NCBI GenBank assembly: GCA_964565795.1
Contig: CAZMGC010000002.1
Coordinates: 1-57,853 of the forward strand
Origin: an uncultured Gammaproteobacteria bacterium
Lineage (GTDB): Bacteria > Patescibacteriota > Microgenomatia > Levybacterales > UBA12049
DNA length: 57,853 bases
Direction: 5' to 3'
A model generated the notes under the pieces. That model did not search any database, was not told where the DNA came from, and saw only the letters and a program-made list of their open reading frames with translations. The translations under genes were made by a program, and so were the position numbers. Positions 4,217 to 46,106 of this stretch are shown here, one piece after another (position 1 is the stretch's first letter; the number at the start of each line of letters is the position of its first letter).

Positions 4217-5164
4217 TTATTCATTTCCGCTATGAAATGACTTATGAACTTCTCTAAGCTGCTTATTTGTTATGTGGGTATAAATCTGAGTAGTCGCAAT
4301 ATTCTTATGTCCGAGCATCTCTTGTACACTTCTCAAATCAGCCCCGTTAGTAAGTAAGTCCGTAGCAAAACTGTGCCTCAAAGTGTGAACTGTAGCATCT
4401 ACTGGTATCCTGGCTTGCCTAACATATTTCTTTACAACTCTCTCAACGCTTCTGGCAGTAAGCCTCATTCTTTCACCATTATTTTCTTCTATTACAGCAC
4501 CTGAATAACGTATAAACATAGGCTTATATGCGTCTTTTCTGTGATTGAGGTATTTTTGTATCCAGTCAGCAGCCCTATCTGAAACGAACACAATTCTTGA
4601 ACGTCTGCCTTTACCTATGATTCCAAACTCCTTGCGGTCTAAATTTATCTGGTCGCGGTTAAGACTTACAAGCTCAGACACACGAAGTCCAGTCGAAAAT
4701 AAAAGCTCCATAATTGCGCGGTCTCTTACTCCTTCTTCCTTAGAAGTATCAGGGCTGGTAACCAGTCTTTCTACTTGATCCCGCTCTAAGAACTTTAGAG
4801 ATCTGCTTTCAGTTTTTGGTAGATCAATTTTGGATGGCTCAAGAGCTTTTATGTCATTTTTTATAAGAAATCTGAGAAATGAACGGAGGGCGATTATGTA
4901 ATAATTCTGCGTAACCCTCTTAAGCCCTGCGCCTTTGTCGTCAGTTTTATTAGAGAGAAAAACTCTGTATTTTCTTATATCTGAAAGGTCTATGTTCTCG
5001 AGATTTTTATTAGGAATTGTTTGCATGTACCATGCTCGGAAGACTTCTAGGTAATGTCTGTAGTCTCTGATCGTAAGCTTACTGCAATTTTTTTCAATCT
5101 CGAGGTATTCTAAAAAATCATTTGAATATCTTAAAAGCTTTTCTTCCATAATACTATAAGTCAA
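4217..5164 (-). CDS. tyrosine recombinase, XerC/XerD family
   Basis: Has the SAM-like N-domain (LEYLEIEKNCSKLTIRDYRHYL). Catalytic motifs are present: GLRVSEL, HTLRHSFATDLL (HxxR) and GHKNIATTQIYTH (nucleophile Tyr). Confidence 0.88.
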   Translation of the reverse strand: MTYSIMEEKLLRYSNDFLEYLEIEKNCSKLTIRDYRHYLEVFRAWYMQTIPNKNLENIDLSDIRKYRVFLSNKTDDKGAGLKRVTQNYYIIALRSFLRFLIKNDIKALEPSKIDLPKTESRSLKFLERDQVERLVTSPDTSKEEGVRDRAIMELLFSTGLRVSELVSLNRDQINLDRKEFGIIGKGRRSRIVFVSDRAADWIQKYLNHRKDAYKPMFIRYSGAVIEENNGERMRLTARSVERVVKKYVRQARIPVDATVHTLRHSFATDLLTNGADLRSVQEMLGHKNIATTQIYTHITNKQLREVHKSFHSGNE

Positions 5165-5352
5165 AATTTGAAGCTAAATTTCTTGAAAAACACCAATTAG
5201 CAGAAGTTAGGGGAGAGTGCCACGTTTGAAAAATTTCTATATCGAAGTGGATCAGACTGTATCCAGTAATCTTAGCTATTTCAGGCAGATAATAACTCAT
5301 TAATAATAAACGCTTTCATTCTGCGATGATCCTAGCGTTGCAAAATGAAAGG

Positions 5353-5382
5353 AAATTGTAAGACGCTAGCGTCTTACAATTT
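5353..5382. repeat. 30-bp perfect palindrome (11-bp arms AAATTGTAAGA / TCTTACAATTT around CGCTAGCG)
   Basis: AAATTGTAAGACGCTAGCGTCTTACAATTT equals its own reverse complement. It lies between the divergent xer gene and ORF 5439. Confidence 0.95.
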
Positions 5383-5401
5383 AATTATACGACGCGGGGA
5401 A

Positions 5402-5430
5402 TTGTATAGTCAAGAGAGATAGATTATAAT
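5402..5430 (+). promoter_or_regulatory. sigma70-type promoter driving a leaderless start
   Basis: TTGTAT, 17 nt, TATAAT (5425-5430), then 8 nt to ATG 5439. No Shine-Dalgarno. Confidence 0.55.
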
Positions 5431-5438
5431 GGCAGCTT

Positions 5439-5846
5439 ATGTTTATAGAATTAGCGATTGCTATTGATCAGAAAAACAACACAAAACCATTAACCGAAAA
5501 AATTGTTAAAAAAGTTGCAGCAAGTCTAACAAATCTAGACGATGACCCAAGAGGAAGATCACTAACGATGCTTGGGGTAAAACTAGGAAGTATTCCGGTA
5601 CTAGAAGAAGGTGTAATTACTCATCACGAACATGTAACCAGATATGTTTACTTCTTCGAATCTTCAAGTCGCTTGGATCCTCTACAAGTTACAGGTGTGG
5701 CGATAGATGGAAGAACAATCACTGAATATACATATAGACGAGAACAGCCAGAATCACATACCATGAGGAACATCTCACTATCTAGAGCTTGGGAATTATT
5801 TAGTGAAGTTGACAAAAGAGTTCCGGTTCAATTTCCAGCTGTTTGA
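5439..5846 (+). CDS. hypothetical protein (135 aa), G+C-richer accessory gene
   Basis: Long ORF with its own promoter. No family recognised. Confidence 0.6.
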   Translation: MFIELAIAIDQKNNTKPLTEKIVKKVAASLTNLDDDPRGRSLTMLGVKLGSIPVLEEGVITHHEHVTRYVYFFESSSRLDPLQVTGVAIDGRTITEYTYRREQPESHTMRNISLSRAWELFSEVDKRVPVQFPAV

Positions 5847-5871
5847 AATAAGATCCTTTGGATGATATAAA
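5843..5871 (+). promoter_or_regulatory. sigma70-type promoter (extended -10) driving a leaderless start
   Basis: TTGAAA (5843-5848, overlapping the upstream TGA stop), 17 nt ending in TGa, TATAAA (5866-5871), then 6 nt to ATG 5878. Confidence 0.6.
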
Positions 5872-5877
5872 TTAATC

Positions 5878-6651
5878 ATGCCAGAAGGAATACATAGACG
5901 AGATATTAGACCGTCACAAGGTGCATTTAGATCAGTCGATCAGGTAAACTCTAACAACCCTAGACTACAGCAAGCAAGAAGAATAACCTCATCTAAAGAC
6001 CACGGTTCAAACGTGCGTCACAGAATAAGAAATATTGCTCTAGCATTAGGAATAATAGCAGGTGGTGGAAGCGGAATCGCACACATTGTTGACGAGGTTA
6101 ACAAACCCCCCGCAGAAACACTTCAGAACTATCAAAACCTAATTACTCAAATCGACATGAACAAATATCTAGTTGAGATCCACAAAGATGGCGAAAAAGA
6201 TTTAGTAGTACGACATGATCCTTACATACCAGACTTTGATGATAGACAAGAAGGCAGAGACAATTATATTGAGATGAATGACATAGTCTCAATAAATGGT
6301 ACCCCTTGGGATGGCAAAGCTCCATTTATTATTGAAAACACTCCGGTTGTAATAGCCACTGATCCAACCTCTGGAATTCTTACTGCACCCTGGTTTGCTG
6401 TTGAATTAGAACACAAAAGCCCTCTGGGAGATATCACTAAAACAGTTGGTTTTATGAGCCATAGTGCTGCTACAGACTCCCACATCACACCTCTTGAATC
6501 TGATGGTGGTATGGTAAATGCTCGGTTCGAAAATGGGCAAATTGTGGGAAAAAATGAATCTGGAGATACAGTGGTGCCTAATGATAAAATAGGCTTAGCA
6601 TCTATCGCAACACACACTTTAACTACTCAGGTTGGAAACCCACAATCTTAA
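5878..6651 (+). CDS. hypothetical membrane-anchored protein (257 aa)
   Basis: Basic N-terminus, then one TM helix (IRNIALALGIIAGGGSGIAHIV). The C-terminal tail IATHTLTTQVGNPQS is shared with ORFs 41695-41982 and 39980-40762. Confidence 0.65.
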   Translation: MPEGIHRRDIRPSQGAFRSVDQVNSNNPRLQQARRITSSKDHGSNVRHRIRNIALALGIIAGGGSGIAHIVDEVNKPPAETLQNYQNLITQIDMNKYLVEIHKDGEKDLVVRHDPYIPDFDDRQEGRDNYIEMNDIVSINGTPWDGKAPFIIENTPVVIATDPTSGILTAPWFAVELEHKSPLGDITKTVGFMSHSAATDSHITPLESDGGMVNARFENGQIVGKNESGDTVVPNDKIGLASIATHTLTTQVGNPQS

Positions 6652-6658
6652 TTTTAAC

Positions 6659-6687
6659 TTGACATATTCTCGGCCTATAGTTATAAT
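6659..6687 (+). promoter_or_regulatory. consensus sigma70 promoter driving a leaderless start
   Basis: TTGACA, 17 nt, TATAAT, then 8 nt to ATG 6696. Confidence 0.7.
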
Positions 6688-6695
6688 AAGCGCCT

Positions 6696-7157
6696 ATGTC
6701 AGACAGATTAAAACACGCACCTGAATCAGCTATTAGATTCGCTGTTAGTCATCCAAGAGCAACTAGACTAGGTGCGCTTGCACTCTCCGCTGCGCTTGCT
6801 ACAACAGCTGTGACACCTGAAGGCCAAAATCCACTAACAAGAATCAAAATTGGAAGTAATGATCCAGAAATAATGACTCAACTTGAAGAAAACGATGGGG
6901 CTTTTCTCAGAGGCAGACCTAACTCTAACAGTGCACCAGTTGCAAGGGCCCCTATAGGAGAAGCTTTCACTGTAATAGGGCTCGTAGAAGATGGCAGATG
7001 GGTTAAAGTTAAACTAGACCCTAAGGAAAACATTCCAGACATTGATATGAATTATGGATTACTACCTAAAAATGATAAAGGAATTACAATAATTCCTAAG
7101 GAAGTTTATATTAAAAGACCTCTTGTAAAGGAAGTCTTCCCTAAACCTAAGAAATAA
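6696..7157 (+). CDS. hypothetical exported protein with SH3b-like segment (153 aa)
   Basis: Signal/anchor-like ATRLGALALSAALATTAVT. GRPNSNSAPVARAPIGEAFTVIGLVEDGRWVKVKL resembles a bacterial SH3 domain. Confidence 0.6.
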   Translation: MSDRLKHAPESAIRFAVSHPRATRLGALALSAALATTAVTPEGQNPLTRIKIGSNDPEIMTQLEENDGAFLRGRPNSNSAPVARAPIGEAFTVIGLVEDGRWVKVKLDPKENIPDIDMNYGLLPKNDKGITIIPKEVYIKRPLVKEVFPKPKK

Positions 7158-15907: not shown

Positions 15908-16219
15908 TTAAACAGTTCCTCCTGGTGTTCCTGTGTCTCCTCCACCTGGTTGCTCTGGTGCAGGCATTCCTGCGTTTGGATCAACTGCTGGTGTAGGTTC
16001 TGGTGTTGGTGCTGGTTCTGGTGCAGGTGGCGGCGTCCAACCTTGATTAGGGTCGACTGCTGGCGCTTGTCCTACTCCTGGATCAGCTGGTGGTGGAGTT
16101 ACTCCGCCTACTGCTGGATCCTGTGCTGGTACTCCTCCCCCCATCCCTGGATCTTGAGGTGGCATTCCACCTGCATTTGGATCTGGAGTTCCAACTGTTG
16201 GGTTATTTTGATCGTCCAT
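15908..16219 (-). CDS. Pro/Gly-rich low-complexity protein (103 aa)
   Basis: The start is placed at MDDQNN, preceded by SD AAGGGGGTGA. The protein has repetitive DP..G/PP motifs. The antisense ORF 15950-16261 is a shadow. Confidence 0.6.
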   Translation of the reverse strand: MDDQNNPTVGTPDPNAGGMPPQDPGMGGGVPAQDPAVGGVTPPPADPGVGQAPAVDPNQGWTPPPAPEPAPTPEPTPAVDPNAGMPAPEQPGGGDTGTPGGTV

Positions 16220-16336
16220 AACATTCACCCCCTTTCGCCTCAAGTCACCCTGAGGTATTAGTTTTCCTATCATATCGGTCTTAATAAAAAATGTAAATAT
16301 ATCAATCGCAGGTTGGACAAGCTTTATACTTTAATT

Positions 16337-36079: not shown

Positions 36080-37177
36080 TTATGTTCCAATCTTAAATTC
36101 AACTACATCTCCATCTTTTACTATGTAATCTCGTCCTTCTAGCTGAGCTTTTCCATTTTCGCGTGCTCCCTTCCAGCCATTAAACTCCACAAATGGATCA
36201 AATCCGACGACTTCGGCTTTAATAAATTTCTTAATAAAATCTGTATGAATTTCTCCCGCTGCGAGCTGAGCGTTAATGCCTTTACGAATTGTCCAAGCTC
36301 TAACCTCTTTCTCCCCTGCTGTTAAAAAAGAAATAAGACCTAATTCTTGATAAGCTTTTTGAATTAGTCTTTGAAGGCCTGAAAATTCTAATCCCAAATC
36401 TTTTAAGTATTCGATTTGCTCTTCGTTAGACAAGCTCGCGAGTTCAGCTTCAATTTTTGCAGAAATCACGACTACTTTTTCTTGTCTTACATTTAGTTTT
36501 TCAGAGTAATCTTTTGCAATCTGATCAATTTTAGAAGAATTATAATCTGATTCTGAAACATTTAAAACTATAATTTCAGGTTTATTTGTTAGAAGAAATA
36601 AATCGCGGGTCGCTTCTTTTTCTTCTTCCGTTAAATCAATGTCATAAGCTCGTTTTCCAGAATTTAATCCCTCTAGCAATTTTTCTGCACCTGATTTTTT
36701 ATGAGGTTCAAGTTTTCTATTTTCTAAAGTTTTCCCTAGAGTTTGTATATCAGCTAAAGCAAGTTCTGTATTTATTGTTTCATAATCCTCTTTAACTCCA
36801 ACACTTCCCTCGCGGACAATGTCACCATCTTCAAAAGCTCTTACGACATGTGCAATAACTGATACTTCACGGATATGTGAGAGAAATTTGTTACCTAACC
36901 CAGCGCCTTCAGAGGCACCCTTAACCAAACCTGCAATATCTACGAAATTAACAGTCGCGGGTTTAATTGGAGGCAAATTATCCATTTTTTCCTCTGACAT
37001 TGTAATCTCGGCAAGTTTTTCCAAACGAGAATCTGGAACAGGAACTACTCCGACATTTGGCTCAATTGTCGCGAATGGATAATTAGCAACAAGTGCTTGC
37101 TGCCTTTTTAAAAGCGCGTTAAACAATGTAGACTTACCTACATTTGGCAGACCCACAATTCCAATACTTAAATTCAT
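36080..37177 (-). CDS. ychF: ribosome-binding ATPase YchF
   Basis: [18 protein letters not shown], a TGS-like C-terminus. TATAAT (37185-37190) lies 7 nt upstream of the ATG. Confidence 0.93.
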
Positions 37178-37192
37178 GAGGCTAATTATATC

Positions 37193-37222
37193 AAAAAAAG
37201 AACCTCGCTTTGCGAGGTTCTT
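37193..37222 (-). terminator. rho-independent terminator for ORF 37243-37458
   Basis: An 11-bp stem AAGAACCTCGC/GCGAGGTTCTT, followed on the minus strand by a T7 run. Confidence 0.75.
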
Positions 37223-38442: not shown

Positions 38443-38873
38443 CTAATTTTGCGGATATTCACCAAACTCATTCATGCACTCAGCCGTAAATAAAGCAAGT
38501 GTAATTTTTAAAGTAATCAATTTTTTCCCAGATTCTTTTAATGCACGTAAAGCAGCTAAAGATCTTTTCAAACCGTCAATTATTAAAATTGGCTCGTCTT
38601 CTTTTGTTCTTACTCCAAAAATTGTAAAAAAGAAAAACCATTAGATAAAATTTTTCTTTTATAATCTTCAACAAAGGATTCCTCATGAGATCCTAACTTA
38701 TTCGAAATAAAGTGACTAATTCTTTTATCATTTTTTAATTTCGGAGGATAAAATTCCTTAAGTAAGTCAGGATCAATAATATTGATAATTTTAAAATCCT
38801 TATTTTGCGACTTGTGAAATAAAAGGATAGCGTTTGTGATCCATGCTGACGCATTAGGGTCTACCAGATTCAT
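38443..38873 (-). pseudogene. frameshifted gene of unknown function (weak phosphoribosyltransferase-like C-terminal half)
   Basis: The 87-aa ORF (38610-38873) stops in a T/A-run. A second frame, open from about 38640, continues as ...VRTKEDEPILIIDGLKRSLAALRALKESGKKLITL...EYPQN*. A 1-nt shift in the homopolymer region would join the two. Confidence 0.5.
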
Positions 38874-38879
38874 GAGGCT

Positions 38880-38908
38880 AATTTACTCCCCTTTTGCTTC
38901 GGTGTCAA
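38880..38908 (-). promoter_or_regulatory. consensus sigma70 promoter driving a leaderless start
   Basis: On the minus strand: TTGACA-CCGAAGCAAAAGGGGAG-TAAATT, then 6 nt to ATG 38873. Confidence 0.6.
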
Positions 38909-38937
38909 GAATTTAATTTCAGTTTGAAATTGAAAAG

Positions 38938-38946
38938 TGGTATAAT
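38938..38946 (+). promoter_or_regulatory. extended -10 promoter element
   Basis: TGgTATAAT, then 10 nt to ATG 38957. It is divergent from the 38880-38908 promoter. Confidence 0.5.
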
Positions 38947-38956
38947 CCCACGCATT

Positions 38957-39544
38957 ATGGAAGGAATGCATGGAGGCTACTATGACGGTGGAGCAAGTGA
39001 TACCCGTGAACCAGGAATACTATCTACCGCTGAATTGATCGCACGGGAAGCAGAAGATGAACTAATGGAAATGGTGAGACAAAATCCAGATTTGATAGCT
39101 TATGTTTCTCAAGCCAACATCAGACAGGCTGCTAATCTACTTACCAAGCTTCAAAGAAGGCTAAAACAAGATCCAGGTTATTTTGAAGATGTTCTGAATG
39201 CGCTTAGAAAAAGATCTGCGGATAATCCAGGAGCTCGCGCTCTATACATAGATCCACTATCCCCTTTAGTCTTAACTCAATCACCAGAAGGACTTGAAGG
39301 ATTTATTCCAGTTTTAGGATGCACTCTTCAGGCACTTCACGATTTAAGAGGATATCTTAATGGTCCTAATATAGTTCACTCTGAAGGAGATTATGTTCTT
39401 TATGCTTATGAACAAATGGAAAGAAATCCAGATGCACTTATAAAATATGAACATACTCCAATTGAGTACGTAGCTATGGCTTCTGCCAGCTTTACAAATG
39501 AAACATTCCGCTTCAGAATCCAAGGAGATCAACTAGCATCATGA
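38957..39544 (+). CDS. hypothetical protein (195 aa), G+C-richer
   Basis: The start is placed at MEGMHGG, downstream of the -10 box. The track's 38894 start would lie inside the promoter region. Confidence 0.6.
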   Translation: MEGMHGGYYDGGASDTREPGILSTAELIAREAEDELMEMVRQNPDLIAYVSQANIRQAANLLTKLQRRLKQDPGYFEDVLNALRKRSADNPGARALYIDPLSPLVLTQSPEGLEGFIPVLGCTLQALHDLRGYLNGPNIVHSEGDYVLYAYEQMERNPDALIKYEHTPIEYVAMASASFTNETFRFRIQGDQLAS

Positions 39545-39569
39545 TAATTTTACTCTAAGGCACAACCTG

Positions 39570-39592
39570 CTCCCCTTTTGCTTCGGTGTCAA
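39570..39592 (-). repeat. orphan copy of the 23-nt promoter element TTGACACCGAAGCAAAAGGGGAG
   Basis: Identical 23-mer to 38886-38908. A 19/23 copy lies at 41327-41349 and a related copy sits in the promoter at 41997-42018. This one has no good -10 and points antisense into ORF 38957-39544. Confidence 0.85.
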
Positions 39593-39595
39593 TTG

Positions 39596-39940
39596 TTAGA
39601 ATACTCTTTTAATATGGCTTGGAAAAGATTCAGCAAGCATTGCATTACTTTCATCTATGATTGCTTGTGCCTCGTTAACAGAAAGATCAGCTTGCTTTGC
39701 AGCATCCTCTATGGAATATGCTCCCATCATTCTCCACATAGCTGCCGCATTTTGTAAAGGCAAATGTGCTAGCGTATGAATAAGAGCTCTTCTATAAATT
39801 GCTCCAGTATTTTCATAATCTATCCTAGCTTTATCAATTTTCCTTTGTCTTTGAATATCTATTGGAATGACAGATGAATCAGTTGGCTCTGGCACAAAAG
39901 GTGGCAAAATTTTTAAGTGGTCTGGTCTAGGCCTTTCCAT
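39596..39940 (-). CDS. small sigma70-region-4-like HTH protein (114 aa), paralog of 41346-41651
   Basis: Starts MERPRPDHLKILPP. HLPLQNAAAMWRMMGAYSIEDAAKQADLSVNEAQAIIDESNAMLAESF resembles ECF sigma region 4.2. Confidence 0.6.
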   Translation of the reverse strand: MERPRPDHLKILPPFVPEPTDSSVIPIDIQRQRKIDKARIDYENTGAIYRRALIHTLAHLPLQNAAAMWRMMGAYSIEDAAKQADLSVNEAQAIIDESNAMLAESFPSHIKRVF

Positions 39941-39947
39941 CTCGAGA

Positions 39948-39977
39948 ATATTATTTCACTTTTTATTTCGAAGTCAA
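39948..39977 (-). promoter_or_regulatory. sigma70 promoter driving a leaderless start
   Basis: TTGACT-TCGAAATAAAAAGTGAAA-TAATAT, then 7 nt to the ATG. It is nearly identical to the promoter at 41659-41688. Confidence 0.6.
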
Positions 39978-39979
39978 GA

Positions 39980-40762
39980 TTAGGCGAAGACTTGCTGAGT
40001 AACAAGAGTATGTCGGGCTACTTTTTGCATTTGAGCAAATGCTTCAATGGTAGGAGTTAGGGTATGTGAAATAAATTCAACTGCACTTGCTTGACCTGTC
40101 CCTACTCCTAATACCAAAAGTGCAGAGGGAAGATCTCTTTCTGCGAGACCCACCATCATATTCTGCAAATGCTCAGGGGTATCAAACCCTGAATCGGCAA
40201 ACAATTGTGTTTCTTCTTTCACCACATCTGCTGGCAAATCTACAAGCGTAGCCAATTTGGCAAAAACAGGAAGCACATCTGTCTCTTCAGAAGCAGAATG
40301 TAAAACTTCTAGATCTGCTTCAACACCTTTACTTGTCAGTCTCGGATAAAGACCAAGTACTGCCATTGGCTCTGTAACCTGATCACTAGTTAGTCGAAAT
40401 CTTGTATAAAGCTTCCCTGCTTTACCTTGAGCGATCAGTCTCATTTGCTCTTCATTTGTAAGACCTCTTAATCTATTAAAAAGCTCTCTATCATCTGAGC
40501 CTGCTTTTTCTGGTTGAGCTCCTAAGATCTCTCCGAGGGGACCATCCATAGCTCCTAGAAAAAGTTCGACTAATTCACCATTCATAGGAACGATTCTTCC
40601 ATCATCCAAAACTTCACCAAATGAAGTATTTACACTTGGAACAAATATAACTCTTGCAGATCTGATTAAAGCCGAGTCGCGATTACCTACCGCGCCTCTG
40701 TCTTTCCATTCTTTCCAATATCTTTGATTACCTGGTTCTCTTGCTTTCAACTCTGCGCTCAT
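39980..40762 (-). CDS. hypothetical protein (260 aa), G+C-richer
   Basis: Long ORF. The C-terminal VARHTLVTQQVFA is related to the tails of ORFs 5878-6651 and 41695-41982. Confidence 0.6.
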   Translation of the reverse strand: MSAELKAREPGNQRYWKEWKDRGAVGNRDSALIRSARVIFVPSVNTSFGEVLDDGRIVPMNGELVELFLGAMDGPLGEILGAQPEKAGSDDRELFNRLRGLTNEEQMRLIAQGKAGKLYTRFRLTSDQVTEPMAVLGLYPRLTSKGVEADLEVLHSASEETDVLPVFAKLATLVDLPADVVKEETQLFADSGFDTPEHLQNMMVGLAERDLPSALLVLGVGTGQASAVEFISHTLTPTIEAFAQMQKVARHTLVTQQVFA

Positions 40763-40770
40763 AAATGTGG

Positions 40771-40799
40771 ATTATACTTCCCTTAATCTAGAAAGTCAA
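40771..40799 (-). promoter_or_regulatory. consensus sigma70 promoter driving a leaderless start
   Basis: TTGACT, 17 nt, TATAAT, then 8 nt to ATG 40762. Confidence 0.65.
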
Positions 40800-40816
40800 A
40801 AAAATATATTTCCTGA

Positions 40817-40844
40817 TTGATTAAAATTCACAAAGATATATAAT
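40817..40844 (+). promoter_or_regulatory. sigma70 promoter driving a leaderless start
   Basis: TTGATT, 16 nt, TATAAT (40839-40844), then 7 nt to ATG 40852. Confidence 0.55.
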
Positions 40845-40851
40845 GCCGATC

Positions 40852-41325
40852 ATGGAATCAAGATTCGCTAAAAGAATGGGATATCAAGAAGCAAGACCAG
40901 TGCCTGACATAACAATTGTTAGAAGCTATGTGCCGGCAGATGCTGTAACTAGACTTGGTGCAGAAGTGGAAAGACTTAGAGCTGCTGAATCTAACCCTAC
41001 GGATGATGTAAATCTTCAAATGTATTCAGCTCTTACAGAAAATCTCAGACAAAGAAAACCAATTATGATTGCTCCTGTAGTAGTTGAAGAAACTGTTTAT
41101 CCAATAGTCGTAGTTCTTACTTTTGGAAATCGTGAAGGAACTGGCAGTGCCGAATCATCATTTGGCGTAATGGTAGAAGATGGGGAAGTATTAATAGATC
41201 ACTTATTTAATGGTGATGATCATCAAGGCTCTCCAGAATTAAGAGATGAATACGTAGGAAAATTAAAAGAACATTTAAAGCAGGGTCATAGACTTACATT
41301 TTTTCCTCCACGCCTTCTAACCTAA
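40852..41325 (+). CDS. hypothetical protein (157 aa), G+C-richer
   Basis: The start is placed at MESRF. The track's ATG 40843 lies inside the -10 box. Confidence 0.6.
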   Translation: MESRFAKRMGYQEARPVPDITIVRSYVPADAVTRLGAEVERLRAAESNPTDDVNLQMYSALTENLRQRKPIMIAPVVVEETVYPIVVVLTFGNREGTGSAESSFGVMVEDGEVLIDHLFNGDDHQGSPELRDEYVGKLKEHLKQGHRLTFFPPRLLT

Positions 41326-41345
41326 GCTGCCTTTATGTTTCGGTG

Positions 41346-41651
41346 TCAAGATTTTTTATGCTTAGGAAAAATTTGGCTGTATGTGGGAAAATCTTCCAAG
41401 AGCCTCGTTTTTCCAGCTACAAAGCTATCCCTGAAAACTTCTTCAGACATTCCACTTCTTTTTATAGCATCGTCTACAGATTCAGCACCGGTTGCAGACC
41501 ACATCGCATTCGCCTGATCTAGTGTCAATCTTGAAAAAGCCTTTATTCTTAATCTATATAAAAAAGCTTCTGATCTCTCTTCTCTAGTCATGGGTCTTCT
41601 ATTTTTTACTTCAAGTGGAGGGAGTAGCGTTAAGTGTTTCGGTCTTTCCAT
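41346..41651 (-). CDS. small sigma70-region-4-like HTH protein (101 aa), paralog of 39596-39940
   Basis: Starts MERPKHLTLLPP. LTLDQANAMWSATGAESVDDAIKRSGMSEEVFRDSFVAGKTRLLEDF aligns with the paralog and with sigma region 4.2. Confidence 0.6.
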   Translation of the reverse strand: MERPKHLTLLPPLEVKNRRPMTREERSEAFLYRLRIKAFSRLTLDQANAMWSATGAESVDDAIKRSGMSEEVFRDSFVAGKTRLLEDFPTYSQIFPKHKKS

Positions 41652-41658
41652 TTCGTGT

Positions 41659-41688
41659 GTATTATTTCACTTTCTGCTTCGAAGTCAA
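41659..41688 (-). promoter_or_regulatory. sigma70 promoter driving a leaderless start
   Basis: TTGACT-TCGAAGCAGAAAGTGAAA-TAATAC, then 7 nt to ATG 41651. Confidence 0.6.
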
Positions 41689-41694
41689 TGCTAA

Positions 41695-41982
41695 TTATCC
41701 TTGTGGGTTTTGTGACTGAGTTGTTAGGATTCTTCTGGCGATTGTCCCTCCACCAACACTCATTAATCCTCTTGAATCACCAATTAACACTTGAGGATTA
41801 TTAATTTGTGCAGTAGGTCTTATGTCAACAATTGAGGTTCGGACTCTTCTGTGATTCCCTCCTGCTTGAAAAAATACATCTACTTGATCACCTGGCTGCA
41901 ATTCTCTTACCTTAGTATAGGGTCCCCTTCTTCTGCCATCAAACCCAAGTGATTCTATTGAAATTCCATATCGTTTTTCCAT
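41695..41982 (-). CDS. hypothetical small protein (95 aa)
   Basis: Its C-terminal tail IARRILTTQSQNPQG is shared with ORF 5878-6651. Confidence 0.6.
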   Translation of the reverse strand: MEKRYGISIESLGFDGRRRGPYTKVRELQPGDQVDVFFQAGGNHRRVRTSIVDIRPTAQINNPQVLIGDSRGLMSVGGGTIARRILTTQSQNPQG

Positions 41983-41990
41983 GGCTATGA

Positions 41991-42018
41991 ATTATACATC
42001 CTTTTGCTTAGGTGTCAA
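41991..42018 (-). promoter_or_regulatory. consensus sigma70 promoter driving a leaderless start
   Basis: TTGACA-CCTAAGCAAAAGGATG-TATAAT, then 8 nt to ATG 41982. Confidence 0.65.
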
Positions 42019-42024
42019 TATTAA

Positions 42025-42435
42025 TTAAAAATTTCGGGGGTCTTCTTGCGGATCTGATCTTCTCTGTATTGGCCTTAAATCCATAACTGATCTATCGTTA
42101 AAAACTGTAATATCATATGGAGTTTGGGATCTTGGTGTATTTGGGTCAAATTCTCGCCCCTCTGAATAATTAATTCTGGTGTGTAGTCCTCTCTGTTCTG
42201 CAAAATCCATTAATCTTTTTCCTACAGCCATAATCATCACGCTTCCAAGTAAAGGAAGTGAAACACCAGGATCATCTATTCTTCTATCTGCATAGTCTAG
42301 AACAAATGAAATTCCATAATTTACAAAAGCAGCTGCGCCCACAGTTAAAAGAGTGGCGCCGGCTCCTTTAACCATATCCGATGAAGGTTCTTTAGCTAGA
42401 TCTTTTGATAATGTAGTTACTTCTACTTTCGACAT
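42025..42435 (-). CDS. hypothetical membrane protein (136 aa)
   Basis: Two hydrophobic segments: GATLLTVGAAAFVNYGISFVL and LPLLGSVMIMAVG. Confidence 0.6.
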   Translation of the reverse strand: MSKVEVTTLSKDLAKEPSSDMVKGAGATLLTVGAAAFVNYGISFVLDYADRRIDDPGVSLPLLGSVMIMAVGKRLMDFAEQRGLHTRINYSEGREFDPNTPRSQTPYDITVFNDRSVMDLRPIQRRSDPQEDPRNF

Positions 42436-42441
42436 GAGCGT

Positions 42442-42470
42442 AATCTACTCCTCTTTTATTTTAAAGTCAA
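42442..42470 (-). promoter_or_regulatory. sigma70 promoter driving a leaderless start
   Basis: TTGACT, 17 nt, TAGATT, then 6 nt to ATG 42435. Confidence 0.6.
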
Positions 42471-42510
42471 GAATGGAAGAATTTATATTCTAAAATGCTA
42501 GAATTAATAA

Positions 42511-42732
42511 ATGAAATTATCTGTAGTCGCTCATCCAAATGCTAAAAAAGAAAAAATTGAAGAAGATCTTTTGGGCACACTCCATGTATATGTAAATGAG
42601 CCTCCGCTTAATGGACGCGCAAATTCTGCAATCATAAATTCGCTTTCAAAACACTTTAAAATAAAACGATCAAATGTGATTTTAATTAGCGGCGAAAAAT
42701 CCAAGAATAAAGTATTTGAAATAATAAATTAA
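42511..42732 (+). CDS. DUF167 (YggU-like) protein
   Basis: KLSVVAHPNAKKEKI...HVYVNEPPLNGRANSAIINSLSKHFKIKRSNVILISGEKSKNK is typical DUF167. It has AT-rich native composition. Extended -10 TGcTAGAAT lies 6 nt from the ATG. Confidence 0.8.
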   Translation: MKLSVVAHPNAKKEKIEEDLLGTLHVYVNEPPLNGRANSAIINSLSKHFKIKRSNVILISGEKSKNKVFEIIN

Positions 42733-42735
42733 TTG

Positions 42736-43146
42736 TTACTTCGCGCGCATGCGATTGTTGCGGGGATTATGCTCTAATTCCACCAATCCCAAAGCTTCCA
42801 TAAGAGGAGGCATATACATCCCAAATCTTCCACGAAGTCCTTTTTTTAGTCCGTACCATCCACCGATAGGATTTTTGGGAGACCTAGCCCAAGCTTCCAC
42901 GGTCCCCTCTTTAGCTTCCTTTTGCTCATCTGCACTCCCGAGCTCCATCCAATCTCCATGTTTTTTTAGCATTTCATGAAGATCTTTTATAGCACGAAGA
43001 TCATAACTAAGAGTTGTGGATCCAACTACGCAAACAATCGCAGGCGGATTAAGACTTTCATCTTTATACATGGTGTATTCGCTAGTTCCAGGAGGGGTTT
43101 TTAATTTCCAGGGATTTTCTCGAGTTCCAAGATTTTTATCAGACAT
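42736..43146 (-). CDS. conserved hypothetical protein (136 aa)
   Basis: The blocks ENPWKLKTPPGTSEYTM, GDWMELGSADEQK and GGWYGLKKGLRGRFG...EHNPRNNRMRA look like a widely conserved uncharacterised family. This is from recollection, with no name assigned. Confidence 0.65.
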   Translation of the reverse strand: MSDKNLGTRENPWKLKTPPGTSEYTMYKDESLNPPAIVCVVGSTTLSYDLRAIKDLHEMLKKHGDWMELGSADEQKEAKEGTVEAWARSPKNPIGGWYGLKKGLRGRFGMYMPPLMEALGLVELEHNPRNNRMRAK

Positions 43147-43153
43147 ATCTGTT

Positions 43154-43182
43154 AATCTACATTTCTTTTACTTAAGTGTCAA
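43154..43182 (-). promoter_or_regulatory. consensus sigma70 promoter driving a leaderless start
   Basis: TTGACA, 17 nt, TAGATT, then 7 nt to ATG 43146. Confidence 0.6.
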
Positions 43183-43184
43183 GA

Positions 43185-43466
43185 TTAATTTATAGATTTA
43201 TCTGCAGGTGGTGGGACTGGATTTTGACGAAGAAGATCAAGCTCCTCCCCTAATGGTCTTGTGTCTGGTGTTATTTCTCCAGCTTGCGCAAGTCTTGCCA
43301 TCTCCTCCATCATTCTTATTGCTCCCCTTACGGCATTTCCGTCTCCAAGCAATCTTAAATCTCCCTGCGTAAATCCACCCTTTAGCCTAATAATCTTAAT
43401 AGGTTTTCGTGGTGAATCGAGAGGTTCGTCTGGATTTTTTGGTACTTCTTGTTCTTTTCCTGCCAT
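43185..43466 (-). CDS. hypothetical small protein (93 aa)
   Basis: ORF with its own promoter. No family recognised. Confidence 0.55.
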   Translation of the reverse strand: MAGKEQEVPKNPDEPLDSPRKPIKIIRLKGGFTQGDLRLLGDGNAVRGAIRMMEEMARLAQAGEITPDTRPLGEELDLLRQNPVPPPADKSIN

Positions 43467-43475
43467 ACACGAGGG

Positions 43476-43503
43476 ATTATATTCTTTTAGTTTATGCTGT
43501 CAA
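43476..43503 (-). promoter_or_regulatory. consensus sigma70 promoter driving a near-leaderless start
   Basis: TTGACA, 16 nt, TATAAT, then 9 nt to ATG 43466. Confidence 0.6.
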
Positions 43504-43509
43504 GGCAGA

Positions 43510-44025
43510 TTATTTTCCAAAAGTAGCTGTCACTGCTGTCGGCTGTGGAATTCCAAAGTGAGCAAGAGTTCCCCTGTTTTGTCCTTCATGATGCGCTTCA
43601 TGCGCTCTCATATCCTGAAGAACTGAAAAACCTGATAGACCTGGCTCTGAATATGGAATATCTACTCTTCTACCCCAATTCGCAGGATTTCTAAAGACTC
43701 TTTCAAGTCCCGCTGTTCCGCCGTCAAATAAAGCCAGTAATTCTTCTCGGGAAAGCGCTGAAAGATCAGGTAGTGCTTCTCTTTCTTCAGTTTCAAATGC
43801 TCTCAATCTAACATCTGCGTGTTTTACCTGATGCTCAAGATAAACTCTTTGAGATGCGATATCTACTCCTACAGCTTCACCGAATTGTGCTTCTGTTGTA
43901 ACTGAATAAGCTACTTTATTCGCTCTACGTAAAATTAAAAGCATGTCTACGGATCTATCTATTTCATCTACTAAGGCTTCTGGAATAAGTACTTGCTCAT
44001 GATGTGAACCTGCTTCTGCTGTCAT
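43510..44025 (-). CDS. DinB/YfiT-like (DinB_2) putative metalloenzyme
   Basis: A helical bundle with His ligands. The C-terminal HEAHHEGQ motif is typical of the DinB superfamily. Confidence 0.65.
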   Translation of the reverse strand: MTAEAGSHHEQVLIPEALVDEIDRSVDMLLILRRANKVAYSVTTEAQFGEAVGVDIASQRVYLEHQVKHADVRLRAFETEEREALPDLSALSREELLALFDGGTAGLERVFRNPANWGRRVDIPYSEPGLSGFSVLQDMRAHEAHHEGQNRGTLAHFGIPQPTAVTATFGK

Positions 44026-44031
44026 GCCATA

Positions 44032-44059
44032 ATTATAAGCTCTTTAACCTCGAAGTCAA
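44032..44059 (-). promoter_or_regulatory. consensus sigma70 promoter driving a leaderless start
   Basis: TTGACT, 16 nt, TATAAT, then 6 nt to ATG 44025. Confidence 0.65.
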
Positions 44060-44073
44060 GGCAAGAGCTTTGG

Positions 44074-44102
44074 TTGACAGGAATAATTAAAAGTAGTATA
44101 AA
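44074..44102 (+). promoter_or_regulatory. consensus sigma70 promoter driving a leaderless start
   Basis: TTGACA, 17 nt, TATAAA, then 8 nt to ATG 44111. It is back-to-back with the 44032-44059 promoter. Confidence 0.65.
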
Positions 44103-44110
44103 AATCCACT

Positions 44111-44734
44111 ATGGTAGATTTAGAGCCCAGAAGAAAACGTGGTAAAGAAAAAGATCCTGTAAATTGGCTCGCTATTGATGAAGCTATTGTTTTAAAGCTT
44201 GCTGAACCAGATCCAGAAGATCCAGATAAGAGAAGATATCCAGAGATTGATCAAGCTTTAGCTGAAGCAGTTATCGATGGCGTGGACAAATCGGGACTAT
44301 CAGAAGCTCACATAGAACGGATAAGGGATGGGATGCTTAAAAGAATAATCGACGCAAAAGCACTAACTTTAGCTAGAATTAACAACTATCGGTATTTAAC
44401 CACAAATGTAGAAAGGGCGAGAATGGATGCCTTTCTAGCAACTCTCCGCGACTTAAATCCTGCGACATCATTTGAATCTATGTCTGACTATGCAGCTCTA
44501 TTTACTCAGGAAGTAGCTCGCCCTGTACAACAGGATTCTCAAGTTACATACATAGACCCTACCGCTCCTCCAAAATTTGATCCTGATAGACCCATCGCAC
44601 CTGGTAATTTTTTAGATCATGTTCTCGGAAAAGAAGTGCAAAGATACATCGGGGATCCTCCAAAACCTACTGGAGCCAAAGTGTATTCAAGTCCCCTTCC
44701 AAACAACCATAGAGTTATGGGAAGTAAATATTAA
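44111..44734 (+). CDS. hypothetical protein (207 aa), G+C-richer
   Basis: Long ORF. No family recognised. Confidence 0.6.
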   Translation: MVDLEPRRKRGKEKDPVNWLAIDEAIVLKLAEPDPEDPDKRRYPEIDQALAEAVIDGVDKSGLSEAHIERIRDGMLKRIIDAKALTLARINNYRYLTTNVERARMDAFLATLRDLNPATSFESMSDYAALFTQEVARPVQQDSQVTYIDPTAPPKFDPDRPIAPGNFLDHVLGKEVQRYIGDPPKPTGAKVYSSPLPNNHRVMGSKY

Positions 44735-44763
44735 TACTTTCAATTATTTTATTTAGAAATGAA

Positions 44764-44934
44764 TCAGAGGCTAAGCATCTTCATCACTTCGTAAACAAAA
44801 ACTCCTGGCCAAAATAATGCCTTAATAAGACCCCATACTGTTTCCTGAAATCCAGATGTTACCTGAATATAATAAATCGCGGCTCCTATTATTCCAGTGC
44901 AATAAATTGCGGAGAGACCTGCATTATCTTTCAT
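44764..44934 (-). CDS. small membrane protein (56 aa), not in ORF track
   Basis: A strong SD TAAGGAGGTG lies 6 nt upstream of the ATG. Translation is MKDNAGLSAIYCTGIIGAAIYYIQVTSGFQETVWGLIKALFWPGVFVYEVMKMLSL, with two hydrophobic helices. Confidence 0.6.
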   Translation of the reverse strand: MKDNAGLSAIYCTGIIGAAIYYIQVTSGFQETVWGLIKALFWPGVFVYEVMKMLSL

Positions 44935-44962
44935 AATTCTCACCTCCTTAAAAAATCTTGAA

Positions 44963-45451
44963 CTATAAACTTAATTTTACGAAACCTAAATTTCCGGGAT
45001 TTGCCGCTGCTTTAATTTTTCCACTATCATCATTCATCTCATTACTCAGTATAACTCTTGTTGGATGCTCTCCGGGTGATTCTAAAATACTGTAAATGGG
45101 ATTTACATAAGATGTCCTAATTCCCCCGTTCGTCATTAGAAATAGTTCATTTGCTACAAACCCAGAAAAACCTGTAATTCTATCATTCACAGAGCCATTT
45201 TTAGTTAAAATCAAATCGATTTTTTCTCCGACCACCTGCCCATCCAAAAATGAATCAACGACTTGTCCTAAAAGTAATGCCTCCTGGCCACCGAATAAAA
45301 CTCTGGTTCTACTATTTACATCTGGTAAAATTCCTAAAATTTCAGCTACTACTTGTCTTTGGTCAGGGGTCAGAAGTCTAGCAATTCTTTCATGCTTTGC
45401 CATTTCAGCTTCCCTTACCATAAATCTTCTATAAGCTTCGTTGAAAACCAC
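44963..45451 (-). CDS. hypothetical protein (162 aa; GTG start as listed, ATG 45421 possible)
   Basis: Long ORF. The promoter is positioned for the GTG start. Confidence 0.55.
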   Translation of the reverse strand: MVFNEAYRRFMVREAEMAKHERIARLLTPDQRQVVAEILGILPDVNSRTRVLFGGQEALLLGQVVDSFLDGQVVGEKIDLILTKNGSVNDRITGFSGFVANELFLMTNGGIRTSYVNPIYSILESPGEHPTRVILSNEMNDDSGKIKAAANPGNLGFVKLSL

Positions 45452-45459
45452 TAAGATTC

Positions 45460-45488
45460 AAAATACTCCTTAAATTAATCCAAGTCAA
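45460..45488 (-). promoter_or_regulatory. sigma70 promoter
   Basis: TTGACT, 17 nt, TATTTT, then 8 nt to GTG 45451. Confidence 0.5.
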
Positions 45489-45501
45489 TTTAAGTATAAA
45501 T

Positions 45502-46068
45502 TTATGCGGATCTTAAAAATTGCCTAACATCTTGGTTAAGAGGCCCAATAAAGCTTTTTATAGTATCAGCAGTTCTTGGAGCTAAGGCTCCCGGTATTTT
45601 ATCTCTATCCATTCTGGAAATATCAGGGTACGCAGCTAAAGCTTTTTCGTGCATATTTAATGCTTCGCTTAATCCCATCCAAGCAATTCTATCATGCTCG
45701 TTTGGAGCTGCATTTACCGGATTAAGTCCCGTCGCATCTAGTAAAAAGGATCTTATATTTATCTCCCGACTATGAATTTTTCCTCCATGTATTTCAGATA
45801 AAACAGATGCTGAATCCTTTACATGTAATAGATCACTCCTCTTAATTACAATCCCCAATTCTTCCCATGCTTCTCTTCTTGCGGTGTCTATTAGCGCTTC
45901 TCCTTTTTCTCGCATTCCACCAAAAAAAGCCCACTGATCCCTAAAAGAACTTGTATTGCGATGTCCCAGTAAAACTTCAAGCTCTATTTCCCCAGCTCTT
46001 ACTGGAATTACTTGAGACCCCACTAAAATCACTCTTCTCATTTCTGGAGTTTTTAATCTTTCAGACAT
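45502..46068 (-). CDS. Nudix hydrolase, G+C-richer
   Basis: The Nudix box is GGMREKGEALIDTARREAWEELG. The start is placed at MSERLK (46068), because the listed ATG 46080 lies inside the -10 hexamer. Confidence 0.8.
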   Translation of the reverse strand: MSERLKTPEMRRVILVGSQVIPVRAGEIELEVLLGHRNTSSFRDQWAFFGGMREKGEALIDTARREAWEELGIVIKRSDLLHVKDSASVLSEIHGGKIHSREINIRSFLLDATGLNPVNAAPNEHDRIAWMGLSEALNMHEKALAAYPDISRMDRDKIPGALAPRTADTIKSFIGPLNQDVRQFLRSA

Positions 46069-46077
46069 AGAACTGTT

Positions 46078-46106
46078 CATTATCCCAGCTTTTTAAAATG
46101 TGTCAA
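46078..46106 (-). promoter_or_regulatory. sigma70 promoter
   Basis: TTGACA, 17 nt, ATAATG, then 9 nt to ATG 46068. Confidence 0.55.

Follow-up and report, generated by a model that had tools for sequence, protein, structure and literature searches.

The locus and its units

We analyzed a stretch of 57,853 nt (contig CAZMGC010000002.1 of assembly GCA_964565795.1; the whole stretch is referred to here as the window), in which an array of small single-gene units occupies positions 38610 to 44110. The window is chromosomal and carries gyrA, folD, a XerD-like gene, yebC, dnaB, ctpA, and ychF. When a genome collection was scanned with YchF, the matches were metagenome-assembled genomes (MAGs) labeled Candidatus Levyibacteriota, Microgenomates, or Patescibacteria at 78 to 93% identity, which bears out the guess of an earlier reading of the bare sequence (the original prediction) that the DNA belongs to the candidate phyla radiation (CPR). 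The array lies between an oxidoreductase/GT2 block on one side and, on the other, a single-domain response-regulator gene adjoining ychF. All 13 open reading frames (ORFs) listed in the original prediction were recovered, coordinates included; as an account of array membership, however, the list was incomplete, for the gene at 38610 to 38873 and two gene-less copies of the promoter module described below (39570 to 39592 and 41327 to 41349) also belong. The individual units are given in Table 1.

The units share a tight promoter layout. The composite pattern TTGACW-N16-18-TAnnnT-N5-10-ATG occurs 12 times in the 57.9-kb window, compared to 0.50 +/- 0.81 times in dinucleotide shuffles, and 8 of these 12 matches fall in 38.9 to 44.1 kb. 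As had been proposed, same-strand neighbors are separated by only 38 to 50 nt (39, 43, 42, 38, 43, and 50 nt when measured), and the gaps hold a TTGAC(A/T)-N16-18-TAnnnT promoter that ends 6 to 9 nt before the ATG, the exceptions being 38957 (10 nt) and 45502 (overlap). The -35 boxes adjoin the upstream stop codons at a distance of 0 to 6 nt, with the stop of 41346 inside the box itself, and the proposed lack of terminators between units also holds: 6 intrinsic terminators were detected, versus 7.9 expected, and zero of them lie between units. Every spacer string quoted in the original prediction was located, and an independent repeat search recovered the junction families D1 to D3.

Since the -10 element ends 6 to 9 nt before the ATG, the predicted transcription start coincides with the A of the start codon or adjoins it, and the mRNAs are predicted to be leaderless. 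No Shine-Dalgarno (SD) sequence was found upstream of the array units, and leaderless-type starts were present in 11 of 13 array genes, against a background of 9.9% at all ATG triplets. Outside the array, a -10-like hexamer stands 5 to 10 nt upstream in 19 of 47 ATG-start genes, including ychF, the response regulator, major facilitator superfamily (MFS) transporters, and a hydrolase; an SD-like motif precedes 6 of the 47 non-array genes, versus a 10% background. Furthermore, the relatives use the same leaderless style for adk, fabD, and other genes. The tight promoter-to-ATG layout, taken in the original prediction as a hallmark of the array, is instead organism-wide, being common to ychF, the response regulator, and the MFS genes. 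Predicted leaderless organization is a general style of this genome, at ~40% of its other genes. We also considered the purine-rich spacer as an SD sequence for read-through transcripts; this role was rejected because the spacer lies 12 to 17 nt from the ATG, too far when compared to the true SD sequences (AAGGAGGTGA), which sit 5 to 7 nt upstream.

The layout resembles that of the "group C" leaderless bacteria of GeneMarkS-2, namely, Actinobacteria and Deinococcus-Thermus (PMC6028130, PMC3160421, PMC3898074), in which a Pribnow box also stands 6 to 8 nt upstream of first-gene starts without an SD sequence in a large share of transcription units. Unlike group C, the host here is a low-GC (~34%) member of the CPR, the -35 element is unusually near consensus, and the array spacer has no counterpart there. 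A literature search returned no paper on leaderless organization in CPR bacteria.

To describe the variation of the locus, we denote the loci of relatives by L-numbers (L004, L149, and so on); the comparative map covers ten of them. In the ten relatives, the interval from the oxidoreductase gene (family F1) to the response-regulator gene (F4) beside ychF holds 4 to 18 units, most of which are mutually nonhomologous ORFans. The proximal part, comprising F5, F2, the Nudix family F13, the GT2 block, and the divergently transcribed head gene F3, is semiconserved; from F3 to the response regulator, by contrast, hardly anything is shared between genomes, and the recurring families F9 to F16 have different neighbors in each genome. 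Cassette proteins range from 85 to 303 amino acids (aa). Most of them have no match in Pfam, PHROGs, or PADLOC, and 39980, F3, and F12 have only 2 to 8 members in a collection of 5.8 billion proteins. The recognizable cargo consists of DinB-like, DUF6855, Nudix, S-adenosylmethionine (SAM) methyltransferase, and FabD-like acyltransferase proteins and a YafQ/RelB toxin-antitoxin pair. Two paralogous cassette pairs (39596/41346, 28% identity; 6472/7647 of L008, 27% identity) have paralogous promoters. Exact-protein lookups for strain-level variants of the array returned the same arrangement only; a metagenome scan with the F3 alignment gave no matches, and one with the response-regulator alignment gave distant relatives only (<=51% identity), none of them with modules.

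The sequence itself shows the promoters with their leaderless layout, as well as how variable the locus is. The most fitting description is a hypervariable array of apparently leaderless single-gene cassettes with a conserved promoter module at their joints, specific to a small Levybacteria clade, in agreement with the earlier proposal of independent single-gene cassettes under a common promoter grammar.

A promoter module particular to the arrays

The module spans 23 to 42 nt and reads (a/g)cCTTGACAC-CGAAGCAAAAG-GGGAG, then TAAATT or TATAAT, N6-8, and ATG; its consensus spacer is TTGACACCGAAGCAAAAGGGGAG, followed by TAAATT or TATAAT. It stands upstream of unrelated genes in at least 8 genomes. 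A search for the spacer pattern TTGACWYNNARNNNAAAG, with <=1 mismatch allowed, yielded 10 matches versus 1.8 expected, and 7 of these lie in the island. Across 28 array promoters, the 17-nt spacer holds 12.4 bits of information, whereas that of 20 further TTGAC leaderless promoters from this clade holds 3.3 bits. The original prediction had allowed that the spacer motif might occur at most promoters genome-wide; these values show a spacer that is instead array specific.

Scans with position weight matrices (PWMs) gave the same picture. In cross-validated scans, 27 matches were obtained in 23.5 kb of arrays versus 4 in 175 kb of other clade sequence, so that the hit density in arrays is ~50-fold above that elsewhere. 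A PWM built from the window spacers matched only inside the equivalent arrays of the relatives, and a PWM built from the relatives matched 9 sites in the array of the window, the other 52 kb giving 2 weak intragenic matches. Moreover, the module PWM matched once in 814 kb of more distant CPR loci, and matches in viral contigs were at chance level only. The gene style of the array had also been seen to recur at 5.4 to 7.2 kb and 26.6 to 26.9 kb; the leaderless style and the amino acid bias are present in these regions, whereas the spacer module is not.

Exact matches of 18 to 23 nt recur across genomes that are only 78 to 93% identical in YchF protein. At the same time, each genome carries its own motif variants, and module similarity is 0.555 within genomes versus 0.498 between genomes (permutation P = 0.013).

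Module copies as candidate recombination junctions

Some copies of the module carry no gene. These gene-less copies consist of the -35 element and the spacer and break exactly where the -10 element should begin. In L007, L008, and L014, such a copy follows the last cassette and abuts the stop codon of the convergent response-regulator gene, and the copy in L014 carries the L014-specific variant CAAAGCCAAAAGG. The two gene-less copies of the window adjoin opposite-strand inserts, and the inverted 38957 insert lies between perfect 23-nt direct repeats of the module, which is the outcome expected of a Campbell-type insertion of a one-copy circle. Two segments of the window are missing from L004, namely, a DinB unit and a DUF6855-plus-DUF167 block, and these indels are bounded by short direct repeats centered on the -35 element, TGCCTTGAC (DinB unit) and TCTTGAC. 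Furthermore, 38610 and L004:8013 are unrelated genes, and yet the module is common to both as far as ATGAAT. Also relevant are the F2 gene, which is SD-led in most genomes but follows a leaderless promoter in two (see below), and the slightly higher similarity of module copies within genomes. Each of these items is weak alone; together, they favor module-module recombination as the route of cassette turnover.

The account that we prefer, with moderate confidence, is that of a hypervariable cassette array whose promoter module would both express the cassettes and serve as their recombination junction. Each unit would be a stand-alone expression unit, with a near-consensus sigma-70-type promoter and a start on the A of the ATG, and its leaderless mRNA would be translated from the 5'-terminal AUG without an SD sequence. 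In its first role, the module would provide strong, ribosome-binding-site-independent expression of any ORF behind it; in its second, its repeated copies would serve as the junctions for cassette insertion, deletion, duplication, and exchange. The process would be recombination between module copies, homologous or by short homology, of Campbell type via circular intermediates, acting on a cargo of clade-restricted ORFans with occasional recognizable accessory genes. In a stronger form of this account, which we regard as possible though doubtful, the 23 nt of -35 element and spacer would be a true cassette-capture site, the promoter doubling as the substrate of an undescribed, integrase-independent cassette system of the CPR, and F12 might target or regulate the site. 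If the capture reading were true, leaderless translation would render any ORF joined to the capture site expressible at once.

Several observations weigh against a recombination role of the module. Judging from the Pfam domains of array genes, no recombinase was found in or beside any array; the sole tyrosine recombinase of the window (XerD-like, 4217 to 5164) lies 34 kb away, and the conserved head gene F3 encodes no recognizable fold. The module has no stem-loop or dyad symmetry, with a mean fold z of +0.14 versus shuffles. The excess of within-genome module similarity is small, and selection for an optimal strong promoter or for a spacer operator could keep the copies similar. In addition, strong promoters of many bacteria have spacers in which an AT-tract precedes a G-rich region beside the -10 element (PMC12641261), and the module, with its own AT-tract and subsequent G-rich stretch, partly recalls this general pattern. 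The -35-bounded indels are weak evidence, since breakpoints would appear to map to conserved elements under any mechanism. The scans covered ~58 kb of this genome and 10 to 20 kb per relative, and other module sites may exist. Cassette expression and the start sites are predictions from sequence.

The closest analogue of the array is the promoter-early stem-loop (PeSL) elements, mobile regulatory cassettes known from hyperplastic regions in T4-type phages (Arbiol et al. 2010, PMC2839356; Comeau et al. 2014, PMC4122927). In common with the array, PeSLs are short intergenic modules with near-consensus sigma-70 promoters, placed right after the upstream stop codon and before ORFans, and are concentrated in hypervariable regions. 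Both systems show module-bounded indels or replacements between close relatives (here, the DinB unit, the DUF6855-plus-DUF167 block, and the 38957 insert), and for both, module-module recombination via circular intermediates is proposed. They differ in that PeSLs belong to phages and the array belongs to a bacterial (CPR) chromosome, and PeSLs have a stem-loop/terminator component that the array does not. Moreover, the array has no SD sequence because its units are leaderless in prediction, and its conservation sits in the -35-to-10 spacer. By this analogy, the array shares the "mobile regulatory cassette" logic of PeSLs and is a flexible-genome hot spot.

The vlp and vsp genes of Mycoplasma also form clustered single-gene units with highly conserved promoter regions, including an A-tract between the -35 and -10 elements; they encode homologous surface lipoproteins and are switched by slippage in long poly-A tracts. 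In contrast, the proteins of the array are unrelated, its A-tract measures only 4 to 5 nt, and most of its proteins lack a signal peptide.

The main rival, which we judge unlikely, is a dedicated regulon in which the spacer (ACACCGAAGCAAAAGG) would be an operator or activator site, the cassettes would be switched together, selection for binding would keep the sequence conserved, and gene turnover would be ordinary flexible-island dynamics with no relation to the motif. It would account for the array-specific spacer information and for the motif variants particular to each genome, and the spacer is a classical site of repressor action. Furthermore, the array encodes the F12 small helix-turn-helix (HTH) proteins (39596 to 39940 and 41346 to 41651), whose AlphaFold model (predicted local distance difference test [pLDDT] score of 79) is sigma-region-4-like; its best PDB fold matches are nearly all region 4 of sigma factors, the region of -35 recognition. 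However, the Foldseek E values of these matches are weak (0.4 to 5), Pfam gives no sigma-region-4 match, and F12 is missing from most of the arrays examined (L004, L005, L008, L014, and L149). The motif is also asymmetric, and gene-less copies without a -10 element persist at the ends of arrays and next to inverted inserts, where an operator would have no promoter to control.

An integron-like site-specific system, in which the module would be the att site of an unrecognized recombinase, e.g., F3 or a Xer-like protein, is improbable. Integrons and superintegrons do share with the array co-oriented single-gene cassettes mostly of unknown function, including toxin-antitoxin pairs, a repeated junction with N+1 logic (here with a terminal gene-less site), high turnover between relatives, and a conserved head gene divergent from the first cassette, as intI is. 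The 38957 insert between perfect 23-nt repeats would also suit such a system. Nonetheless, the array has neither IntI nor attC hairpins, and every cassette bears its own promoter instead of depending on a shared Pc. Its junctions measure only 38 to 50 nt and are asymmetric, with no matching inverted repeats in the repeat search; the module has no inverted-repeat core, and when it was considered as an integron, attC, dif, or PeSL stem-loop element, no hairpin or dyad symmetry was found. With no array recombinase and no dyad or stem-loop, the array therefore lacks what defines an integron or, in the strict sense, a PeSL. The sole recombinase of the window is nearest to XerC/XerD (NCBIfam) and is distant from the array, as described above.

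F3 was likewise rejected as a recombinase or regulator. Its AlphaFold model (pLDDT 63) shows, with modest confidence, a helical bundle with a disordered, proline-rich tail; a Foldseek search against the PDB returned nothing at E < 1, a PDB sequence search returned nothing, and an exhaustive HMMER profile search returned the same tiny family of ~8 members. Moreover, F3 is missing from the arrays of L155 and L014.

We give still less credence to a generic strong leaderless promoter, under which the similarity of the modules would reflect convergent optimization of the -35 element, the spacer, and the -10 element. Leaderless TATAAT-N6-9-ATG starts are indeed common across the window and the relatives, and an AT-tract followed by a G-rich spacer is frequent in strong bacterial promoters (PMC12641261). 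What decides against convergence is that the 20 other TTGAC leaderless promoters show no spacer conservation (3.3 versus 12.4 bits), that the hit density in arrays is ~50-fold higher, that exact matches of 18 to 23 nt persist at YchF identities of 78 to 93%, and that gene-less copies exist.

Tandem duplication with rapid divergence, which would make the cassettes very old paralogues that kept their promoters, is similarly hard to credit for the array as a whole. In its favor, the neighboring paralogues (39596/41346 and the pair in L008) keep paralogous promoters, and modules are slightly more similar within than between genomes. However, cassette proteins differ in size (85 to 303 aa), the annotated proteins share no fold (DinB, Nudix, SAM methyltransferase, FabD-like, YafQ, and DUF6855), a given family has different neighbors in different genomes, and the DUF6855 protein has a 61%-identical actinobacterial homologue. 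Tandem duplication accounts for the few paralogous pairs and not for the whole array.

Composition bears on a foreign origin. The original prediction had described the ORFs of the island as G+C richer, which holds at codon positions 1 and 2 but not at synonymous sites. G+C is ~0.40 in island genes versus ~0.35 elsewhere; the values are 0.54 versus 0.46 at position 1 (GC1) and 0.41 versus 0.34 at position 2 (GC2) (both P < 0.001), and 0.239 versus 0.241 at position 3 (GC3) (Mann-Whitney P = 0.95). Island proteins contain more Arg, Ala, Pro, Met, and Asp and less Ile, Lys, Phe, and Asn. Since the rise is confined to positions 1 and 2 with equal GC3, it reflects amino acid composition and not foreign codon usage. 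PHROGs gave no match for 10 array proteins, PADLOC gave no matches, and no integrase, tRNA target, or phage or plasmid genes were found at the array. A phage origin was rejected on the empty PHROGs result and on the 16-mer TTGACACCGAAGCAAA, whose 50 single matches in IMG/VR are at chance level and none promoter-like; a defense island was rejected on the PADLOC result. A recently acquired foreign element, be it a prophage, an integrative element, or a classical genomic island, is the most remote of the explanations: G+C above that of the flanks, the ORFans, and presence/absence variation between close relatives, a genomic-island trait, speak for it, but the lack of deviation at synonymous sites, the empty PHROGs and PADLOC searches, the lack of an integrase, tRNA gene, or att-type flank, and the retention of locus and module across several species-level relatives speak against it and against the earlier suggestion of remains of a horizontally acquired element.

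CPR bacteria have tiny genomes with a huge share of genes of no recognized function. The locus suggests a simple route by which accessory genes may enter such genomes, be tried out, and be lost again, in which a portable 40-nt promoter would be a complete expression signal where translation needs only a 5'-terminal AUG, and repeated module copies would form a natural shuffling site. It is also the first sequence-level sign that we found of a dominant leaderless organization in a Microgenomates lineage, which matters for gene calling in CPR MAGs, and it offers a compact, testable set of promoters and ORFans, including a sigma-4-like mini-protein.

Individual units and neighboring features

Table 1. 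Units of the cassette array and adjoining genes, with their promoters
Feature	Coordinates	Strand	Remarks
Core cassette array	38610..44110	-	9 co-oriented single-gene units plus 3 on the opposite strand, from head gene 44111 to tail near response regulator
Terminal cassette, 87-aa AT-rich ORFan	38610..38873	-	
Promoter module TTGACACCGAAGCAAAAGGGGAG-TAAATT-AGCCTC	38874..38908	-	Directly precedes ATG of 38610-38873
Opposite-strand cassette, 195 aa, function not recognized	38957..39544	+	Own extended -10 promoter TGgTATAAT, 38938-38946
Gene-less module copy, -35 and spacer only	39570..39592	-	23 nt identical to 38886-38908; breaks exactly at start of -10
Cassette, 114 aa, family F12, small HTH, sigma-region-4-like predicted fold	39596..39940	-	Paralogue of 41346 (28% identity)
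Promoter module of 39596	39941..39977	-	81% identical over 53 nt to module of paralogue 41346
Cassette, 260-aa ORFan	39980..40762	-	Single homologue (55% identity) among 5.8 billion proteins
Promoter TTGACT-N17-TATAAT-N8-ATG of 39980	40763..40799	-	
Opposite-strand cassette	40817..41325	+	TTGATT-N16-TATAAT-N7 promoter, then 157-aa ORFan from 40852
Second gene-less module copy, TTGACACCGAAACATAAAGGCAG	41327..41349	-	TGA stop of 41346 inside its TTGACA
Cassette, 101 aa, family F12, with module 41652-41688	41346..41688	-	
Cassette, 95-aa ORFan, with module TTGACACCTAAGCAAAAGGATG-TATAAT, 41983-42018	41695..42018	-	
Cassette, 136 aa, family F10, predicted membrane protein, with module 42436-42470	42025..42470	-	
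DUF167 gene, AT-rich	42511..42732	+	Own leaderless TAGAAT promoter (predicted)
Cassette, 136 aa, DUF6855, with module 43147-43182	42736..43182	-	Highest GC3 of the array (0.34)
Cassette, 93 aa, family F14, with module 43467-43503	43185..43503	-	
Cassette, 171 aa, weakly DinB_2/MDMPI_N-like, with module 44026-44059	43510..44059	-	Unit absent in L004
Head gene, family F3, 207 aa	44074..44734	+	Predicted leaderless promoter, back-to-back with promoter of first cassette
Small membrane protein, family F2, 56-59 aa	44764..44943	-	SD-led here (AAGGAGGTGA)
Family F5 gene, 162 aa, with promoter TTGACT-N17-TATTTT	44963..45488	-	Conserved part of locus
Nudix gene, family F13, with promoter TTGACA-N16-GATAAT	45502..46106	-	Position relative to F2/F5 differs in L008 and L151

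For the Nudix gene at 45502, the real start is probably the Met5 ATG at 46068, 10 nt after the -10 element, as in the L151 orthologue, because the -10 element (GATAATG) overlaps the first annotated ATG. At the other end of the array, the gene at 38610 was considered as a truncated copy of L004:8013, and no homology was found. According to their models, the F12 proteins would be sigma-4-like mini-proteins that stand alone, their genes being set among promoters whose extended -35 element and spacer are unusual.

The description of 44764 as an SD-led small membrane gene was correct. This F2 gene (44764 to 44943; L149:4088-4258; L155:7816-7986) is SD-led (AAGGAGGTGA) in most genomes and has a leaderless promoter in two. 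That promoter comprises the complete module in L149, whereas L155 has a weaker form with TTGATA, so that a single gene has alternative expression signals.

In relatives, the DUF167 gene (L149:13096-13320; L155:3788-4012) adjoins MFS/MacB transporter genes, and the MFS/MacB junction of this genome (54760 to 54779) is empty. Since the relatives carry it beside MFS/MacB, DUF167 looks like a core-like gene that has moved into the array here. The DUF6855 protein (42736 to 43146, minus strand) shares 61% identity with a protein encoded by a Rhodococcus antarcticus plasmid. A transfer across phyla, with a high-GC actinobacterium as the donor, may have left this trace; the identity and the GC3 of the gene would agree with an import from a high-GC organism old enough for its synonymous sites to have ameliorated.

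The ychF gene (36080 to 37177, minus strand) always adjoins the array, together with the single-domain response-regulator gene, which may be a coincidence; according to work cited in PMC12641178, YchF modulates the translation of leaderless mRNAs. The only convincing intrinsic terminator nearby (37198 to 37222, minus strand) consists of AAGAACCTCGCAAAGCGAGGTTCTT and a subsequent T-run and lies directly upstream of the ychF promoter. The AAGAACCTCGCAAAGCGAGGTTCTT hairpin is kept in relatives, where it lies upstream of a Nudix gene.

Third-party annotation (TPA) MAG records titled "uncultured Gammaproteobacteria/Pseudomonadales" (L004 to L007 and L012 to L016) are syntenic with this genome and 55 to 93% identical to it in YchF. 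The same records are also close to MAGs labeled Levyibacteriota; several evidently belong to this clade, and their titles look like taxonomic mislabels.

Outside the array, an ORF at 15908 to 16273 (minus strand) has 53% G+C in a 34% G+C genome and adjoins tRNA-Leu(CAA), the sole match of an Rfam search of the window. Its product is a low-complexity protein of 121 aa rich in Pro, Gly, and Ala, and its region has no Rfam match. The XerD-like tyrosine recombinase gene (4217 to 5164), 34 kb from the array, scores below the XerC/XerD equivalog cutoffs (NCBIfam). It lies downstream of a strong promoter at 5413 (minus strand), which is itself followed by the palindrome GTAAGACGC-TA-GCGTCTTA, and beside it stand three apparently leaderless, Arg/Ala-rich ORFans (5439, 5878, and 6696), so that 4217 to 7157 may form a second variable region.

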